Assembly (NCBI GenBank): GCA_040006935.1
Contig: JBDTVZ010000001.1
Span: 359,772 to 423,771 of the forward strand
DNA: 64,000 bases
From: Candidatus Dojkabacteria bacterium
GTDB lineage: Bacteria > Patescibacteriota > Dojkabacteria > J137
Direction: 5' to 3'
Shown: piece by piece, positions 5,945-54,430 of the stretch
Layout of the letters: each line of letters opens with the position of its first letter
Position numbering within the stretch: position 1 is the first letter of the stretch
Position numbers and translations under genes: made by a program
Notes under the pieces: model-generated
Databases searched by the model: none
Told to the model about the DNA's origin: nothing
What the model saw: the letters and a program-made list of their open reading frames with translations, nothing else

Positions 5945-5996
5945 AGAATTTGGAGTTGAAATTGCAGATAATCATAGCAAAAAGAAATTATTATTT

Positions 5997-6058
5997 GTGT
6001 CATTTCGAGCGAACTAAGTGAGTCGAGACCCTTCGACTCCGCTCAGTGTGACACAATG
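5997..6058. repeat. MITE-like element family B (GTCATTTCGAGCGAAC...GAGTCGAGACCCTTCGACTC hairpin)
   Basis: 6001-6029 is nearly identical to the reverse complement of 39560-39589; internal perfect hairpin. Confidence 0.6.
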
Positions 6059-6099
6059 TTTATATAAGCCCGTGAGATTCAGTAGGCAGTGCCTATTCC

Positions 6100-6275
6100 T
6101 TGAGATTCGCAGTGGACGCATTTACGATTGGGATATGTGAATCGTAGGGGACGCATTTAAGATTGAAATATGAGATTCGTAGGGGACGCATTTATGCGTC
6201 CCTCATTGAATGCCAGGATCAAAGAGCAATCCAACTTCATGCGGTAATGAACTGCCAGGAGAGAGGATGAGGTGG
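6100..6275 (+). repeat. composite repeat family A: tandem GAGATTC-GTAGGGGACGCA units (full REP-like palindrome 6179-6205) plus a conserved ~70-nt tail ending GATGAGGTGG
   Basis: Related copies at 16193-16333, 27961-28062 (inverted), 30141-30219 and a partial copy at 39637-39670. Confidence 0.75.
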
Positions 6276-6303
6276 TATTATAAAATATTATTAAATTAAT
6301 CAC

Positions 6304-6771
6304 ATGCAGGAATCTAAATTCTATAGAACAAATATTTTACCTTCACTACCTATCCATCAAATATATATTTGGTTTGTAACATCCGACAACAAGATGGTTT
6401 TGGTTAAAACCAAAAGTGGAAGTTATCAATTACCTGGAGGAAAGCCTCTCTTAAACGAAACGAAAGAAGACACATTAAGTAGAGAATTATTTGAGGAATC
6501 AGGAATTAAAATAGAAAATATGAAACCTCAATTATTTGGTTATTACTTAGTAAAGAACGACCCATATTGGCCTGAACCTGAGTATCTGCAATTAAGATAT
6601 TTCTTCAAATCTAATAGAAATTCCACTGATTTCACCTTAGAAACTAATGAACCTGATGATAACGATAAAATTGTTAAAGCAGAATTTATAAATGCATCTC
6701 AGATTTTCGATTACATAACTTGGATGAAGGTTGAACCTGATGAATACAATGCTTTCTCATCTATGATATAA
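6304..6771 (+). CDS. NUDIX hydrolase
   Basis: Nudix box GGKPLLNETKEDTLSRELFEESGI (GX5EX7REUXEEXGU). Confidence 0.8.
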   Translation: MQESKFYRTNILPSLPIHQIYIWFVTSDNKMVLVKTKSGSYQLPGGKPLLNETKEDTLSRELFEESGIKIENMKPQLFGYYLVKNDPYWPEPEYLQLRYFFKSNRNSTDFTLETNEPDDNDKIVKAEFINASQIFDYITWMKVEPDEYNAFSSMI

Positions 6772-16192: not shown

Positions 16193-16333
16193 ATGAGATT
16201 CTGTAGGGGACGCATTTATGCGTCCCTCATAAAGTGCCAGGTCAAAGAGTAATCCCCGCCTGCTCCCGACTAGCAGGAGGGAGGGCGGGCACTTCATGCA
16301 GTATTAAACTGCCAGGAGAGTAGATGAGGTGGG
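16193..16333 (+). repeat. composite repeat family A copy with GTAGGGGACGCATTTATGCGTCCCTC palindrome and a 35-nt GC-rich insert
   Basis: Aligns to 6172-6275. Confidence 0.75.
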
Positions 16334-16391
16334 CTAAAGTCAACATAAATCGAAATAAGGCCGCACAAAGTCAATAGTGTATTTTTGGTGC

Positions 16392-27934: not shown

Positions 27935-27960
27935 CACCTTGGTGTCATTGCTTGACATTA

Positions 27961-28062
27961 CCACCTCATTTACTCTTGTAGCAGTTTGATACTGCATGAG
28001 TTAGATTACTCTTTGATCCTGGCATTTTACGAGGGACGCATAAATGCGTCCCCTACGAATCC
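27961..28062 (-). repeat. composite repeat family A copy in inverted orientation (ends ...GAGGGACGCATAAATGCGTCCCCTACGAATC)
   Basis: Reverse complement of 6172-6275. Confidence 0.75.
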
Positions 28063-30103: not shown

Positions 30104-30118
30104 TTGATTATGTAGTAG

Positions 30119-30138
30119 GGTCCAGCCATGGCTGGACC
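30119..30138. repeat. REP-like palindrome type 1 (GGTCCAGCCATGGCTGGACC) with GTAG head, directly 3' of the ligase stop
   Basis: Perfect 20-bp GC-rich palindrome; related copies at 39047-39067, 50601-50620, 59149-59168. Confidence 0.8.
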
Positions 30139-30140
30139 TG

Positions 30141-30219
30141 AGATTTGTAGGGGATGCCACGATCAAAGAGTAATCCAACTCATGCAGTATTAAACTGCCA
30201 AGAGAGTAGATGCGGTGGT
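30141..30219 (+). repeat. composite repeat family A copy (degenerate palindrome half plus conserved tail)
   Basis: Aligns to 6172-6275. Confidence 0.7.
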
Positions 30220-30281
30220 AATGTTTAAATAATTCATGGTTCGATAAACTCACCATGGCATAAAGTGTCCTCGCATTGTCA

Positions 30282-39592: not shown

Positions 39593-39765
39593 ATATGGAT
39601 CATCTTGTGCCAAGTATAAATAAGGTCCAACCCCACTTAATTTAAACTGCCAGAACACAGTATGAGGTGGTAAGGTCAATGAAAATGTAAAGACCTTAAC
39701 TTACTAAGATTTATAGCTGTAAAGTCAAGGGTTAATTCTTGCTATTCTCTATTAATTTATAATTC

Positions 39766-45989: not shown

Positions 45990-46061
45990 GCTAGGGTAGC
46001 TCAGCTTGTAGAGTACTCGCCTGAAGAGCGAGGTGTCGACAGTCCCAGCCGCCCTCTGGCA
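45990..46061 (+). pseudogene. degenerate tRNA-Phe(GAA) copy with disrupted T-arm
   Basis: Same acceptor, D and anticodon arms as the tRNA-Phe at 47364-47439, but the T-stem has 2 mismatches and a 6-nt loop. Confidence 0.6.
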
Positions 46062-48256: not shown

Positions 48257-49537
48257 ATGTCTTCATTAGTAATACAAGGTGGTCATGCTTTAAACGGAAC
48301 CGTTGTTCCAATGCCTAACAAAAATTCGATACTTAAGCTTATTCCTGCAGCTGTTTTAACAGATGCTCCAGTTACATTTCACAATGTTCCAAAAAGCTCT
48401 GCTGTACGTATTCTATTACAGATTTTTAGACAACTTGGTGGGAAAGTAGCGTATCTAAAAGGTGATTCAATAAGATTGGATGGTGCAGGAATTAATACTT
48501 CAGCAATTAACGAAGAACTAGCTGGGAAAGAAAGAGCTTCTTTTTTATTTTTAGGACCTTTGGTTTCTAGATTCGGAAGTGCTTCCATTAGAGATGGTGG
48601 AGGATGCAAATTAGGGAATAGACCATTAGATACGATGTTTCAAGGTTTGGAAGGACTTGGAGTTCAAGTTGATAAAGGTGATGGATACAAGATTAAAGCT
48701 AAAGAATTAAAAGGTGCTCATATTTGGTTAATTGAAGCTTCAGTTACAGGAACAGAAAATTTAGTATTAGCCGCAGTTAAAGCAAAAGGAATCACAACAA
48801 TTTACAATGCAGCTTGTGAGCCGCACACTCAAGATTTATGTAATTTCCTAGTTTCTGTTGGAGCAAAAATTGAAGGAATTGGAACAAATAAATTAGTTAT
48901 TGAAGGAGTTGAGAACTTAAGTGGAGGAGAGTGGACAGTAATTTCTGACCATGTAGATATCGGTGGATTGATTGTTGCTGCATTAGTTACGGACGGTGAA
49001 TTAACAATTAAGAATGCAATCCCAGAGCACATGACTCAAATTATTAATTACTTTAGAAAGCTAAATGCCAAGATTACTATAAAAGGGAAGGATATTCATA
49101 TTCCAAAAGATCAGGATTTAAAAGCATTGCCAAATATTAAAGGTGATATGGATAAGATTAACGACCTGCCATGGCCAGGATTTCCTGTAGACTTGATTCC
49201 ACAGGCATTAATTCTTGCTTTAAAAGCTAAAGGAAATATTAGAGTTTATTCTAATTTATACGAAGTTCAATTAATTGAATTGTTTGCAGAATTGTTTAAG
49301 ATGCAAGCAAAAATGACAATGGCGAATCCTAATATGATTTTGACCCATGGAGCAACTGAATTTGTTGGAACAAAAGTAAATGCTTCTACAATTTTACAAT
49401 GTACACATGCATTAGTACTTGCAGGACTGGCAGCAAGAGGAAAAACAACAGTAGAAAATGCAGATATTATTTATAGAAGATTCCCTGAAATTGTTCAAAC
49501 TTTAAATGCACTTGGTGCGAAAATTGAGAAGGCTTAA
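48257..49537 (+). CDS. murA: UDP-N-acetylglucosamine 1-carboxyvinyltransferase
   Basis: EPT-family N-terminus LVIQGGHALNGTVVPMPNKNSILK and catalytic-loop region GGCKLGNRPLD. Confidence 0.9.
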   Translation: MSSLVIQGGHALNGTVVPMPNKNSILKLIPAAVLTDAPVTFHNVPKSSAVRILLQIFRQLGGKVAYLKGDSIRLDGAGINTSAINEELAGKERASFLFLGPLVSRFGSASIRDGGGCKLGNRPLDTMFQGLEGLGVQVDKGDGYKIKAKELKGAHIWLIEASVTGTENLVLAAVKAKGITTIYNAACEPHTQDLCNFLVSVGAKIEGIGTNKLVIEGVENLSGGEWTVISDHVDIGGLIVAALVTDGELTIKNAIPEHMTQIINYFRKLNAKITIKGKDIHIPKDQDLKALPNIKGDMDKINDLPWPGFPVDLIPQALILALKAKGNIRVYSNLYEVQLIELFAELFKMQAKMTMANPNMILTHGATEFVGTKVNASTILQCTHALVLAGLAARGKTTVENADIIYRRFPEIVQTLNALGAKIEKA

Positions 49538-49538
49538 T

Positions 49539-50297
49539 ATGAGCACACTTACTGTTAAGATTGATGATAAGGATTTGAAATTTACCACATACTCTTTTGG
49601 GGATATACTTGCAGGTTTTAGTCTAGGAAAGAATGTGAACTACCACCCTTTATCTGATATAAATTTACAACTAACTTCAAAAGTTCTAAATAAACTAGAT
49701 TTATCAGGATCTTTCTTAAAAATAAAAACAGAGCATAAAGATAAAATATTAATTAACTCTGACTCTGAGGAAGCAGATGCAATTATCTCAACATCAGGAA
49801 AACCAATAATTCTTTCTCCAGCCGATTGTATAGGACTAATCCTTATTGATACAAAATCAAATTCTTATGGTCTTTGCCATGTTGGAAGAGCAGGTGTTGG
49901 ATACAATATTGTTGAAAAATTTATTAATAAATTCCTTGAAATAATAGATTCAACTACATACGAAAATAATCAATTTCAATTTATAATTTCTCCTAATATC
50001 GACCACGAGAATTACCCTCATAACGATGATGCTTTTATCTATACTGATAGTAAGCCTAATTGGTGGTTTAACAACCAAGAGTTGCTAAATAAAAAGGATG
50101 GTACATTTTTTCCTAATCTTGAAGGTGCTGTTATTAAACAAATCAAAGAGAGTAAATTAAAAGACGACTCTTATGAAATTATCTCATCAGGTTTAAGTAC
50201 GTTTAAGGAAGATATGCATTCTAATGCCAGAGATACGCATGAAAGTATTAAGGAGAAAAGAAGAAATTTAGTATTTGTTGGTCACTTAGATAGATAA
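49539..50297 (+). CDS. PgeF/YfiH (DUF152) family protein
   Basis: SPADCIGLILID....GLCHVGRAGVG matches the ADCxP...HAGWRG core; start set at MSTLTV, 1 nt after the murA stop. Confidence 0.6.
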   Translation: MSTLTVKIDDKDLKFTTYSFGDILAGFSLGKNVNYHPLSDINLQLTSKVLNKLDLSGSFLKIKTEHKDKILINSDSEEADAIISTSGKPIILSPADCIGLILIDTKSNSYGLCHVGRAGVGYNIVEKFINKFLEIIDSTTYENNQFQFIISPNIDHENYPHNDDAFIYTDSKPNWWFNNQELLNKKDGTFFPNLEGAVIKQIKESKLKDDSYEIISSGLSTFKEDMHSNARDTHESIKEKRRNLVFVGHLDR

Positions 50298-50600
50298 TAT
50301 CCTAATCTGGTATAATTCGAAATAATTAAATTTATTTCATGATTCGCACCAGAAAAATTCTCCGACATAAATATTTGGATTATTCAAACAATCGAAAATA
50401 TTTCATTACAATTTGTACAAAATACAGAATTAATCATTTTGGTGAAATTAAAAATAACAAAATGTTTTATTCTGATATTGGATTGATTGCCAGAGAATAT
50501 TTGGAAACAATTCCCAGGCATTTTATATTTTGTGAAATTGATTCGTTTGTTGTTATGCCGAATCATGTACATATGGTTGTGGTGTTGAATGAATATGTAG

Positions 50601-50620
50601 GGGTCGCCCATGGGCGACCC
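50601..50620. repeat. REP-like palindrome type 1 (GGGTCGCCCATGGGCGACCC) inside the tnpA coding sequence, preceded by TATGTAGG
   Basis: Perfect 20-bp palindrome, ~75% GC in a ~33% GC gene. Confidence 0.8.
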
Positions 50621-50645
50621 AATGATTTTGGTATGACGAATAATC

Positions 50646-50670
50646 GGGACGCCGATCGGCGTCCCCTACA
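50646..50670. repeat. REP-like palindrome type 2 (GGGACGCCGATCGGCGTCCC-CTACA) inside tnpA, inverted relative to the type 1 copy
   Basis: Same stem as the GTAGGGGACGCA...TGCGTCCC elements at 6179, 16206, 28034. Confidence 0.8.
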
Positions 50671-50902
50671 ATTACAAAATCCGATGAATGTATCAATACC
50701 AAAAATAATCAATCATTACAAAGGGTCTGTAACGCGTATTGTCCAAAATGAATTCAATAATTTTGATTTCCAATGGCAACGTTCATACCACGACCATATA
50801 ATCCGCAACGACCACGAATTAAACCGAATTCAAATTTACATAAACCACAACATATTAAATTGGAACAAAGATATTAATAATAAATAATGATAAAATCTTT
50901 CT

Positions 50903-51928
50903 ATGCAAAAATTCCAAAACCACAACATTAAAGAATTCAATACATTCCACATTGCAGTAAATGCAAGGGAATTTATCATTATCGAAAATTCCTCTGAGCT
51001 CATAGAACTTTATAAAAAAAACCTCTTCAAAAATAAATTCTTTATTTTAGGGTCAGGAAGCAATTTGCTTTTCACAAAGGATTTTGATGGTGCAATTATC
51101 CAAATAGATAATCGCGGAATCAAAGTAGTTAACGAAACACCTGAGCATATATTTGTAGAATCAGAAGCTGGGGAAGATTGGGATGAGTTTGTAGGTAAAA
51201 CAATGGAAATGAATGCATATGGATTAGAAAACCTATCTTTAATTCCCGGATCTGTAGGAGCATCCGCGGTTCAAAATATTGGAGCTTACGGAGTTGAGGC
51301 TAAAGATTTTATAGAGTCTGTTGAGTTTTTTCATTTAGAAGATGGGAAGTTCCATAAAGCTGTTAACTCCGAGCTAGGATTCAAATATAGAGATAGTATT
51401 TTTAAACACGATCTTAAAGATAAAGCCATTGTTACAAAAATTACTTTTAAATTAAATAAGAAACCGGCATTAAAACTTGAGTATGCCGATGTATTGAAAG
51501 AGATAGAGAGTAGAGGACTAGATAAAAACAAACTTCATCCGAAAGAATTAAGAAATCTGATTATCGATATTAGAAATAATAAATTAGAAAACCCAAAACT
51601 GATCGGCAACTCCGGTAGTTTTTTCAAAAATCCAATAATATCTAACGATAAAATTGATGAATTAACAAAAGATTACCCAAGTTTAAAATCAAATTATGTT
51701 ACCGATTCTGAATCTAAAATTTCTGCAGGGTGGCTGATAGAGCAAGCTGGGTGGAAAGGATGGATATCAATCGATAAACAGTATGGAGTATCACCTAAGC
51801 ACGCCTTAGTTATAGTAAACTATTCCAATGCAAAAGGAGTGGACATACTAACTCTTGCTAAACACATTAAAAGCTCTGTTAAAGAAAATTTCGGAGTAGA
51901 GTTAGAGGAAGAAGTAATTATAATATAA
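50903..51928 (+). CDS. murB: UDP-N-acetylenolpyruvoylglucosamine reductase
   Basis: FAD-binding FILGSGSNLLF and C-terminal MurB domain (AGWLIEQAGWKG, KHALVIVN). Confidence 0.85.
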   Translation: MQKFQNHNIKEFNTFHIAVNAREFIIIENSSELIELYKKNLFKNKFFILGSGSNLLFTKDFDGAIIQIDNRGIKVVNETPEHIFVESEAGEDWDEFVGKTMEMNAYGLENLSLIPGSVGASAVQNIGAYGVEAKDFIESVEFFHLEDGKFHKAVNSELGFKYRDSIFKHDLKDKAIVTKITFKLNKKPALKLEYADVLKEIESRGLDKNKLHPKELRNLIIDIRNNKLENPKLIGNSGSFFKNPIISNDKIDELTKDYPSLKSNYVTDSESKISAGWLIEQAGWKGWISIDKQYGVSPKHALVIVNYSNAKGVDILTLAKHIKSSVKENFGVELEEEVIII

Positions 51929-52591
51929 AATCGATTTTAAACGACTTCCTAGACATTCTAAGTATAAATTAACAATATACCCTAACTTTTAGAATAAAAA
52001 CCAACCTTCATACTTACACTTATCAAAGCCCTAAGTGCCGAGATATTGTTTCCGGATTCAAATGAATAAAAGTTCAATTTAGAAATTCTATATATCTATT
52101 CTGGAGAGACTTTACATATAGCTTTTAAGTAGAGGTTTTATCTACTTAAACTTCTGTTCCACGTAACTCGTAGATTTTGATACTATTTTTTAAATAGAAT
52201 AACCATGATACTTTTCTCTCCAATTAATAGAATGTAAGTTTAAATAGATAGTGCTATTAGAGGGTTTTAGGCTTTTCAAGTATCAGCATGTTAATAAAAT
52301 TAGAAACTGACCTCTTTTTAGAGGTATACTTACGTTGGTTAAATTTGAATAATTCGAGGGTAAATTTATACTTTACGCTTTAATAATCTATAAAAATCTA
52401 ATATATTAAGGTGATGACACATTAATTTTTCGTATAAATATTTACAACATAGCGTTTAGAATAATAAATCTAAATGAGACATTTTCATCAATTTACCAAA
52501 AGGGGCGTTTTTTACTATTTGTGACGTATTGGAACGCAAAATATGTAAATGTAAAATTTCTAAATTAATCGCGTAACACAAAATTTATAAA

Positions 52592-54430
52592 ATGAGCAAA
52601 ATACGAACACTTCCAGAAAATTTAATTAACATGATTGCAGCCGGAGAGGTAGTAGAAAGACCAGCTTCTGCAGCAAAAGAGCTTATCGAAAACTCTATAG
52701 ATGCAGGAGCAACAGAGATTATCTTAAAAATCGAAGACTTTGGTAAAAAGTTAATAGAAATTTCTGATAATGGTGTAGGTATGGATAAAGACGACGCACT
52801 GAAAGCATTCGAGCAACATACAACCTCTAAAATCTCTCAAGAAAACGATCTCTATAATATAGTTACTCTTGGTTTTAGAGGAGAGGCTCTTGCAAGTATT
52901 TCATCTGTTGCGGACTCTATAATAATAGAGACAAAATCTAAAGATATCGAAGCTGTTAAATTGAATATTAAGAATACTCATAGAGAGTTTGAGAATTCTG
53001 CAAGAACAGATAACGGCACAATCATTAGTATTTCAAGTTTATTTAAGAACGTTCCTGCGAGATTAAAATTCTTAAAATCAGATGCAACAGAGCTTAAGTA
53101 TATAACTACAACTTTCACAGATATCGCATTAAGCCATCTAAATATACGGTTCGAGATGTATCACAATGGGAAACTTTTATATCGTCTTCCTAATACGACA
53201 AGCGCTAAAGACAGAATTTTCGATATATATGGTAAGAATGTTGCCGAGAGTTTGTTCAATGAATCCCATTTTGACGGGAAATCGTATCAAATAACTGCAT
53301 TGTTTTGTAAGCCAGAACTAGCAAAGAAAATATCAACTATTCAGTACATATCCTTAAACGGTAGAGCCATTAACAGCAAGATAATATCAGTTGCAGTTCA
53401 GCAAGCTTACCAAGGGTTTATCCACAAAGATTTGAAGCCACATTACTTCCTTTTTATACACATGGATCCATCAATAGTTGATGTAAATGTACACCCTAGA
53501 AAGTTAGAAGTTAGGTTCGAAAATCAAGATCAAATCTTTAAAGATATATTCCGATTGACTAGAAACTCACTCGAAAATAGTACAAAACTAGATACTGGTA
53601 TTAATAGAGAAGAGGAGATCAAGTCTTCAGAAGTTCGTGAAAACATTACAAATCAAGGTAGTTCAAACTTTAAGTCAAATTATATTTATCCAAAAAATAA
53701 TTATAGTTTTAAAGAAAAAGGTCAAAAAGTTAATGATTTAGTTAATTTTCAAAATATATTGAACGAAGCTCCAAGTTTCAATACAGCATATCGTTCCACG
53801 GAAAGACTCAATAATCTAGCAACTAGTAACCTGGAACTAGAAACCAATTTTAAACCTTTTCAAGTTCTAAATACATATATTGTATTTGAATCGAAAGATA
53901 AGGTTACTTTTATAGATCAACATGCTGCTGCAGAAAAGATATTGTTCGAGAAGATACTTTTTGGTTTAGGCGATATTAAAACTAAACCAATGTTAGTACC
54001 AGAAGTTGTTGGACTTAAAAACGAAGATAAGGCTCTTATTCTAGAAAAAGCAGATGATTTAAAAAGAATTGGAATAGGAGTAGAGGACTTTGGAGGGAAA
54101 GATATACAAATTACAGAAGTACCTGAAGAGTTAGAGGATCTTGATGTAAGAAAATATATAGACGCCATCTTAAATAATAACGAAGATTTTTCGCATTTAT
54201 CACATGTTTACGCGGGGGTTCCACTCTCAAGCGAACTTTATTACCTTGTAGCTATTACAGCGTGCCATGGTAGTATTAGAGCAGGACAGAAATTAAGTGA
54301 AACTGAAATGAAAAAGATAATTGAAGATTTGCCAGGCTTAAAGAATTCTCAAAGTTGCCCTCACGGAAGGCCAATTCGTTGGGTTCTTAACAAAAGCGAT
54401 ATCGAAAAGAATTTTAAAAGAATAATATGA
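52592..54430 (+). CDS. mutL: DNA mismatch repair protein MutL
   Basis: GHKL ATPase N-terminus IAAGEVVERPASAAKELIENSIDAGAT...DNGVGM and C-terminal dimerisation domain. Confidence 0.9.
   Translation: MSKIRTLPENLINMIAAGEVVERPASAAKELIENSIDAGATEIILKIEDFGKKLIEISDNGVGMDKDDALKAFEQHTTSKISQENDLYNIVTLGFRGEALASISSVADSIIIETKSKDIEAVKLNIKNTHREFENSARTDNGTIISISSLFKNVPARLKFLKSDATELKYITTTFTDIALSHLNIRFEMYHNGKLLYRLPNTTSAKDRIFDIYGKNVAESLFNESHFDGKSYQITALFCKPELAKKISTIQYISLNGRAINSKIISVAVQQAYQGFIHKDLKPHYFLFIHMDPSIVDVNVHPRKLEVRFENQDQIFKDIFRLTRNSLENSTKLDTGINREEEIKSSEVRENITNQGSSNFKSNYIYPKNNYSFKEKGQKVNDLVNFQNILNEAPSFNTAYRSTERLNNLATSNLELETNFKPFQVLNTYIVFESKDKVTFIDQHAAAEKILFEKILFGLGDIKTKPMLVPEVVGLKNEDKALILEKADDLKRIGIGVEDFGGKDIQITEVPEELEDLDVRKYIDAILNNNEDFSHLSHVYAGVPLSSELYYLVAITACHGSIRAGQKLSETEMKKIIEDLPGLKNSQSCPHGRPIRWVLNKSDIEKNFKRII

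Follow-up and report, generated by a model that had tools for sequence, protein, structure and literature searches.

The TnpA-Y1 subclass 2.4, which equals group 4 in Bertels' grouping of the tyrosine transposases associated with repetitive extragenic palindromes (REPs), or RAYTs, was defined by Quentin, Siguier, Chandler and Fichant in 2018 (BMC Genomics 19:475, PMC6006769). In the portions of that paper on which we draw, the hallmark of the subclass is the presence of in-frame REPs in the loop between strand beta3 and helix alphaC, a loop that is placed away from the DNA-binding surface. These REPs are either of a canonical long type with a G-C foot or of a 'double foot' type, for which an undeleted inverted REP dimer is the proposed precursor. 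A further mark of the subclass is an insertion of 8 residues where alphaB ends. The same portions report REPs near the gene in the 'large majority' of members; flanking REPs are typical of the subclass, not obligatory. Group 4 RAYTs occur commonly in Cyanobacteria, Chlorobia, and Caldilineae but seldom in Proteobacteria (Bertels et al. 2017, Genome Biology and Evolution 9:2110). Here, a gene of this type is described from a 64,000-nt stretch of Candidatus Dojkabacteria bacterium (contig JBDTVZ010000001.1, positions 359,772 to 423,771 of the forward strand), referred to below as the window. The gene probably encodes a RAYT that carries an inverted REP dimer as a tolerated passenger in a permissive loop, the enzyme itself being likely active.

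The transposase gene and its internal REP dimer

The features of the gene and of the module within it are given below (ORF, open reading frame; AF2, AlphaFold2; pLDDT, predicted local distance difference test; ssDNA, single-stranded DNA; REPIN, REP doublet forming a hairpin).

50339..50887, + strand: tnpAREP/RAYT gene, TnpA-Y1 subclass 2.4-like, 182 aa (ORF, Pfam, NCBI protein, AF2 and Foldseek)
50564..50572, + strand: HuH motif H76-V77-H78 in MPNHVHMVV, strand beta3 (H76/H78 invariant in alignment A1; aligned to the HuH motif of Escherichia coli TnpAREP)
50596..50670, + strand: inverted REP dimer, 75 nt, REPIN-like, heads outward, in frame, V87-Q111 (inverted repeat, ssDNA fold, GC content, rare codons, low-pLDDT loop)
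50597..50620, + strand: REP-1, GTAG head and perfect 10-bp-stem palindrome GGGTCGCCCATGGGCGACCC (resembles extragenic family A at 30115 and 39044)
50621..50645, + strand: AT-rich 25-nt spacer between the REPs, 28% GC
50646..50669, - strand: REP-2, GTAG head (minus-strand reading) and perfect 10-bp-stem palindrome GGGACGCCGATCGGCGTCCC (8-bp foot as in extragenic family B)
50774..50806, + strand: W146-R156 (WQRSYHDHIIR), corresponding to W94-R104 of E. coli TnpAREP (profile alignment to 4ER8)
50837..50851, + strand: catalytic Tyr motif Y167-I-N-H-N171, Y-x3-N (Y167/N171 invariant in A1; aligned to Y115/N119 of 4ER8)

The module, 50596-50670, reads TGTAGGGGTCGCCCATGGGCGACCC, 25 nt, and GGGACGCCGATCGGCGTCCCCTACA. 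An initial annotation of the window had described a 75-nt, 25-codon module with two inverted GC-rich palindromes bearing GTAG/CTAC heads. Its length and frame hold, while the span it gave, 50594-50668, follows the codons and lies 2 nt off the palindromic one. The palindromes were rightly recognized: both are perfect over 20 nt (50601-50620 and 50646-50665), with 0 expected for each in shuffles of the window. Positions 50596-50627 and 50639-50670 form an inverted repeat with 32-nt arms, 81% complementary, and the fold of the module as ssDNA is one hairpin at -22 kcal/mol (z = -4.8, equalled by 0 of 200 shuffles). The GC content is 80% in the hairpins, 57% in the whole module, and 28% in the spacer and the remaining gene, in a window of ~32% GC. 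The module is also rich in codons that are rare in the genome, such as CGG, which occurs twice in it and at 0.4 per 1000 in the genome (Mann-Whitney p = 0.0014). These features mark the module as a piece of DNA with an origin other than the evolution of a protein loop. It is translated as VGVAHGRPNDFGMTNNRDADRRPLQ, with codon V87 (50597) formed by the first three letters, GTA, of the GTAG head. Both hairpins are followed by a T-rich run and were flagged as terminator-like by a simple scan, although the T-runs are weak. A gathering-threshold Rfam scan of the whole window returned tRNAs only and nothing at the module.

With regard to the protein, the ORF and its HuH motif are present as first annotated, and an NCBI entry, 'MAG: transposase [Candidatus Dojkabacteria bacterium]', matches the product at 100%. 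The hidden Markov model check proposed earlier gave a match to Pfam Y1_Tnp (PF01797) with E = 5.5e-11 and 43.1 bits, the cutoff being 23. This match is split in two, with residues ~86-111 left out, and the NCBIfam matches are split there too. The best of the latter, NF047646 (REP_Tyr_transpos), reaches 48.7 bits, under the equivalog cutoff of 80, and by this model the transposase does not rank as an equivalog; transpos_IS200 reaches 28.6 bits, under a cutoff of 55. The AF2 model has a mean pLDDT of 83.6, with a core above 90, and all 30 Foldseek matches in the PDB at E <= 0.001 are Y1 transposases (IS608, ISDra2, IS200-type TnpA, and TnpAREP 4ER8), the top ones being IS608 and ISDra2 TnpA. In the model, the HuH motif is carried by strand 76-83 and Y167 by helix 158-170. 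The module falls in the low-pLDDT loop predicted at residues ~84-119 between beta3 and alphaC, with pLDDT 49-66 at residues ~91-119 and above 90 to either side; strand 76-83 precedes the loop and helix 120-138 follows it. The stretch from beta3 to the next helix measures ~36 residues here versus 13 in E. coli TnpAREP. The placement of the module between the HuH-bearing strand and the helix that follows it, as first proposed, is thus borne out by the split Pfam match, A1, the alignment to 4ER8, and the AF2 model.

All residues that are invariant in the family (Y15, Y21, H76, H78, K128, W146, D152, Y167, N171, and W175 in A1) are kept. The alignment to 4ER8, made with a profile built from 32 homologues, pairs the HuH motif with H76/H78, W94 and Q95 with W146 and Q147, E100 and H101 with D152 and H153, R104 with R156, Y115 with Y167, and N119 with N171. 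The W94-R104 region of E. coli TnpAREP is reported to touch the GTAG guide, in the portions of PMC6006769 cited here. QRSYHDH, first taken for the catalytic-Tyr motif, belongs to the counterpart of this GTAG-contact region; the catalytic Tyr is Y167, in YINHN. The Y-x3-N motif is followed by Ile (YINHNI) with no Pro, and the closest homologue, P0002, likewise has no Pro there.

The neighbours on the same strand are MurA (48257-49537), a Cu-oxidase_4/PgeF-family protein (49506-50297), and MurB (50903-51928), which leaves intergenic gaps of 41 nt upstream and 15 nt to murB downstream; the gene does stand alone between pgeF and murB, as the initial annotation had it. One Y1 gene was found in the 64-kb window, and the earlier description of the gene as single-copy holds for the window only. 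No flanking subterminal hairpins, tnpB, or second gene copy were found within the window. Together with Y-x3-N instead of Y-x3-Q and a score under the IS200 cutoff, this agrees with the earlier view that the gene encodes a RAYT-like HuH/Y1 enzyme and is not an intact insertion sequence (IS).

The gene resembles subclass 2.4, as far as the cited portions of PMC6006769 describe it, in several respects. NHVH of the HuH motif, which follows the subclass pattern NH[IFV]H, and WQ are exact, and YIxNNP appears as YINHNI (P to I). The protein has the size of ~180-195 aa, has no C-terminal tail domain, and occurs, within the window, at low copy number. It shares the variable beta3-alphaC insertion of frame-keeping GTAG REPs, and its homologues spread over Cyanobacteria, Bacteroidota, Chloroflexota, and other phyla. 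On the other hand, the host belongs to the candidate phyla radiation (CPR; Dojkabacteria), and no CPR host is named for the subclass in those portions of the text; the gene lacks a flanking REP out to 1 kb; and the insert is an undeleted inverted dimer with a 25-nt spacer, not a single double-foot REP. The gene fits subclass 2.4 on all features compared except Pro to Ile and the absence of a flanking REP.

E. coli TnpAREP (RAYT group 2, subclass 2.2, 4ER8) shares with the window protein the fold, the HuH motif, the W-Q...[E/D]-H..R region, and the catalytic Y with an N four residues on, as well as the association of GTAG-headed REPs with the gene. However, the two proteins are only ~17% identical, the E. 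coli REPs flank the gene with none inside, the beta3-alphaC insertion is missing, and the E. coli protein has a C-terminal extension that is absent from the window protein. REPINs (Bertels and Rainey 2011) likewise consist of two inverted REPs with a short spacer that form one long hairpin, whereas the doublet described here is intragenic and translated, and has no other copy in the window, so that no replicating population is seen there. IS200/IS605 TnpA (subclass 1.1, e.g., IS608) has the same core fold and chemistry but differs in its Y-x3-Q motif, subterminal hairpins, multiple copies, and frequent tnpB, none of which applies to the gene within the window. Palindromic elements that lie in frame within protein-coding genes have reportedly been described in Rickettsia, by Ogata and co-workers in 2000. 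In-frame REPs were also recorded in many other genes (Di Nocera et al. 2013, PMC3733652). Both kinds of element resemble the module as GC-rich palindromes in coding genes that keep the frame and add 20-30 residues. Their hosts, however, are unrelated housekeeping genes with varied insertion sites, whereas the host here is the presumed mobilising enzyme and the insertion site recurs across the subclass.

Homologues and the murA-murB slot

A search among 5.8 billion proteins yielded a set of 3722 homologues. The nearest are 47-48% identical, which makes a near-isogenic comparison for presence or absence of the 75-nt module impossible. A total of 80 homologous loci were taken from GTDB species genomes (Bacteroidota, Chloroflexota, Cyanobacteria, Ignavibacteriota, Proteobacteria, CPR, and others), and the gene could be delimited in 73 of them. 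In 57 of these 73, the DNA of the beta3-alphaC loop contains a GT[AG]G-headed GC-rich palindrome, very often a full 'double-foot' GTAG-stem-stem-CTAC such as GTAGGGGCACGGCATGCCGTGCCCCTAC or GTAGAGACGTTGCATGCAACGTCTCTAC. The initial annotation had considered in-frame repeats of the enzyme's own type to be unusual; this count, and the published hallmark of subclass 2.4 as reported in the cited portions of PMC6006769, overturn that view. The sequence of the loop palindrome is lineage-specific across loci, and, for the majority of the loci that also have copies outside the gene, 14 or more of 16 positions agree between the internal REP and one of those outside REPs. In A1, the loop length ranges from 0 to ~60 residues, with recurring peptides such as VGDADLRPLR, VETQNFAS, VETLQCNVST, VGTGHALSLQ, and DAINRVCT. 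No homologue carries the same 25-aa segment as the window protein, each having its own lineage-specific palindrome and some none; the refuting case named earlier, relatives that have this segment but no palindromic DNA, was not observed.

Only two reading frames of the loop REP were seen, GTA/G and xGT/AGG (frames 0 and 1; the slash marks the codon boundary), the third being absent because frame 2 reads a TAG stop and gene finding demanded an open frame. No conserved target 5' of the internal GTAG was seen across the compared loci. REPs flank the gene within 1000 nt on either side in 44 of the 73 loci. The density of REPs per kb is 4.8 in the loop, 1.6 in the nearest 300 nt, 0.21 at 300-1000 nt, 0.10 at 1-3 kb, and 0.07 beyond 3 kb. 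Insert-less genes are known from three loci (L062, L070, and L007), and insert-less proteins are P0016, P0021, and P0067; REPs still lie near these genes.

Synteny traced through MurB gave four related loci, L081-L084. The row murA-[slot]-murB-mutL-DUF192-clpP, for which positions 48257-54430 of the window were compared, is conserved among Dojkabacteria-like genomes, with variable slot content, as follows.

Window: pgeF and the RAYT gene
L082: RAYT gene alone
L081: HSDR_N_2 gene
L083: nothing

At L081, L083, and L084, no RAYT gene was found at the slot position and no GTAG hairpin in the 5-9 kb fetched. The RAYT gene of L082 has one double-foot REP, GTAGGGAATTGCGATCGCAATTCCCTAC, in the same beta3-alphaC loop. 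A second copy, located upstream of the RAYT gene on the murA side, agrees with it at all of 42 nt, an 11-nt 3' tail among them; by its sequence, this identity looks like a recent copy event between flank and loop. L082 and the window share 40% identity in RAYT versus 81% in MurA and 70% in MurB, which makes it doubtful that the L082 RAYT is an orthologue of the window RAYT. The L082 RAYT is no closer to that of the window than are homologues on unplaced contigs, and it is no less likely that the two reached this slot independently.

Another Dojkabacteria locus, L001, has different neighbours and a RAYT 42% identical to that of the window, with a degenerate palindrome, GAAGGGGAAGGCGATCGCCGTCCCCTTC, at the same place of the loop. 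L001 also contains, at 3-557, a second and divergent Y1-like gene, in which a GTAG-headed palindrome with a 12-bp stem, GTAGGCGAGGATGGCCATCCTCGCCT, lies at 306-331 between the HuH and W motifs.

REPs and other repeats elsewhere in the window

The window was scanned for GC-rich stems headed by GT[AG]G. Besides the two internal REPs, five GTAG hairpins were found outside the transposase gene, all of them intergenic.

6179..6202, + strand: extragenic REP, family B (GTAGGGGACGCATTTATGCGTCCC), intergenic
16203..16226, + strand: extragenic REP, family B
28033..28056, - strand: extragenic REP, family B
30115..30138, + strand: extragenic REP, family A (GTAGGGTCCAGCCATGGCTGGACC), 12 nt past a stop codon
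39044..39067, + strand: extragenic REP, family A (GTAGGGTCCGCCCATGGGCGGACC), 6 nt past a stop codon

The family A REPs begin with GTAGGGTCCRSCCATGG, and REP-1 differs from them by two compensated differences per arm. REP-2 has the 8-bp foot GGGGACGC in common with family B and a different apex. The earlier statement that the internal palindromes belong to the same two families as those between genes thus stands as to relatedness, the window containing five related GTAG hairpins, but not as to identity, as none of the five is identical to REP-1 or REP-2. The extragenic REPs are all single, and no second copy of the 75-nt doublet was found in the window.

Another repeat of ~85 nt (consensus TGCCAGGATCAAAGAGTAATCCAACTCATGCAGTATTAAACTGCCAGGAGAGTAGATGAGGTGGTAATGT) occurs immediately 3' of the family B REPs. 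It is intergenic, and its orientation to the neighbouring genes varies. Its copies are as follows.

6206-6299, + strand: ~85-nt repeat
16230-16351, + strand: ~85-nt repeat
27945-28029, - strand: ~85-nt repeat
30150-30235, + strand: ~85-nt repeat
39622-39688, + strand: ~85-nt repeat, partial

The ~85-nt repeat has no Rfam match, an E-value scan of 5950-6320 giving chance-level matches only. It was not found in the 84 related loci, and two patterns derived from it had no exact match in the metagenome contigs of the Joint Genome Institute (JGI). It could be a REP-tailed unit resembling miniature inverted-repeat transposable elements (MITEs) or a small RNA. At 6101-6205, three tandem 35-nt units each contain the family B REP left arm GAGATTCGTAGGGGACGCATTTA, with the hairpin complete in the last only. 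At 30139-30165, a copy of the ~85-nt repeat retains the GTAGGGGA head without the REP hairpin (the head is directly followed by TGCCACG...) and is preceded by the family A REP at 30115; from its sequence, this arrangement looks like a hairpin deletion or an excision footprint. Another copy contains, at 16255-16290, a 35-nt GC-rich self-complementary insertion, CCCGCCTGCTCCCGACTAGCAGGAGGGAGGGCGGG. Apart from these repeats, a weak Rfam tRNA match of 36.3 bits, for which ARAGORN makes no call, is located at 45990-46061 (+ strand).

Proposed origin and possible role of the internal dimer

The proposed course of events is as follows. The gene would encode a TnpAREP/RAYT of subclass 2.4, packed in a murA-pgeF-RAYT-murB row. 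If it acts as E. coli TnpAREP and IS608 TnpA do, this protein would bind GTAG-headed hairpins in ssDNA and cut and rejoin them via the HuH-bound metal (H76/H78) and Y167. An inverted dimer of the genome's own REP type would have landed in, or been copied into, the beta3-alphaC loop, which would be the one part of the protein to tolerate extra residues. The module would survive there thanks to a length divisible by three and to a GTAG that is read GTA/G and not xxG/TAG. Most likely, the 25 added residues form a disordered passenger and the enzyme remains active. REPs accumulate inside and beside RAYT genes, an arrangement known as a REPtron, probably owing to a preference of the enzyme for sites close to the gene that encodes it. 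The passenger may have arrived through this action, and selection would retain only in-frame copies in the permissive loop. As insert-less homologues exist, any role of the internal REP can be argued to be dispensable.

Several points weigh against this explanation. To our knowledge, no member of subclass 2.4 has a demonstrated enzymatic activity. YINHNI differs from the subclass consensus YIxNNP (P to I). The 1 kb on either side of the transposase ORF is free of GTAG hairpins, unlike in a typical REPtron, and the internal REPs are not identical to any of the five extragenic REPs in the window, so that recent copying from those five is not established. Despite the strong AT bias of the genome, the two hairpins have stayed perfect, which suggests recent arrival or active maintenance. 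In addition, REPs are three times as dense in the loop as in the 300 nt of flank closest to the gene (4.8 vs 1.6 per kb). A purely passive model of landing anywhere and surviving where tolerated does not predict this, and, the near flank being presumably neutral, it leaves room for a hot spot or positive retention.

It is possible, though considerably less probable than a passenger, that the internal dimer is a selected cis element, either a self-regulatory binding site (in ssDNA or mRNA), a partial attenuator, or a 'master copy' that links the enzyme to its substrate and seeds REPs. The loop is the most REP-dense place (4.8 per kb vs 1.6 in the nearest 300 nt and 0.07 beyond 3 kb), the internal REP is present in 57 of 73 homologues and tracks the REP family of the genome, both hairpins are perfect under AT mutation pressure, and each has a T-rich run with a terminator-like flag. 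However, REPs persist next to insert-less homologues, and the loop REP differs freely in copy number, length, and position, within the Dojkabacteria as well. As terminators, the hairpins have weak tails, and efficient termination would leave murB, which starts 15 nt downstream, short of transcription; moreover, the loop lies away from the DNA-binding surface according to the cited portions of Quentin et al. (PMC6006769). For subclass 2.4 as a whole, it seems rather unlikely that the internal REP is a maintained part of the system, that is, the enzyme's own substrate kept in its coding sequence, where it could serve autoregulation or be a heritable master copy linking enzyme specificity and REP sequence. 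This would nevertheless explain the threefold density of the loop over the flank, the match to the REP family of the genome, and the perfect hairpins in an AT-biased CPR genome.

The remaining alternatives concern the gene itself. A decaying transposase, disrupted by REP insertion and open by chance, is improbable: the scores under the NCBIfam equivalog cutoffs (48.7 vs 80 for REP_Tyr_transpos) and the change of Pro to Ile in the Y-x3-NP motif would fit such decay, but the ORF is full-length without stop or frameshift, all invariant residues are kept, the AF2 core is predicted with confidence, and P0002 also has no Pro. Moreover, most homologues have an in-frame insert at the same place, with all those ORFs open. 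An ordinary IS200/IS605 insertion sequence, the palindromes being transposon-end hairpins, is highly improbable. It would share the fold and the HuH/Y1 chemistry, and the best Foldseek matches are indeed IS608 and ISDra2 TnpA; against this, the hairpins lie within the ORF and are not subterminal, the window has no tnpB or second copy, the motif is Y-x3-N and not Y-x3-Q, transpos_IS200 reaches 28.6 bits with a cutoff of 55, and the neighbours are only 41 nt and 15 nt away. That the 25 residues form a native protein loop, palindromic by chance or through a codon effect, is hardly conceivable: the open reading frame favours it and nothing else does, while 0 such palindromes are expected in shuffles, hairpins of 80% GC with rare codons stand in a gene of 28% GC, and the peptide occurs in no homologue, the GTAG-palindrome-CTAC architecture recurring across phyla with other sequences.

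In-frame REPs in the loop of their own RAYT were already described in 2018, and the gene in the window is a further example, from a CPR host. For annotation, GC-rich low-complexity peptides in such 'transposases' (for example VGxxHxxPL, VETQNFAS, and RDAINRVST) are translated REPs. The module offers a clean example of an undeleted intragenic inverted REP dimer, the double-foot precursor proposed by Quentin et al. in the portions of their paper cited above. The occurrence of a RAYT/REP system of the subclass 2.4 type in the reduced genome of a CPR bacterium (Dojkabacteria) is of modest significance. The density gradient, from the loop to the nearest flank and much further down to the distant flank, sharpens the question of why REPs gather in the loop of the enzyme presumed to mobilise them.

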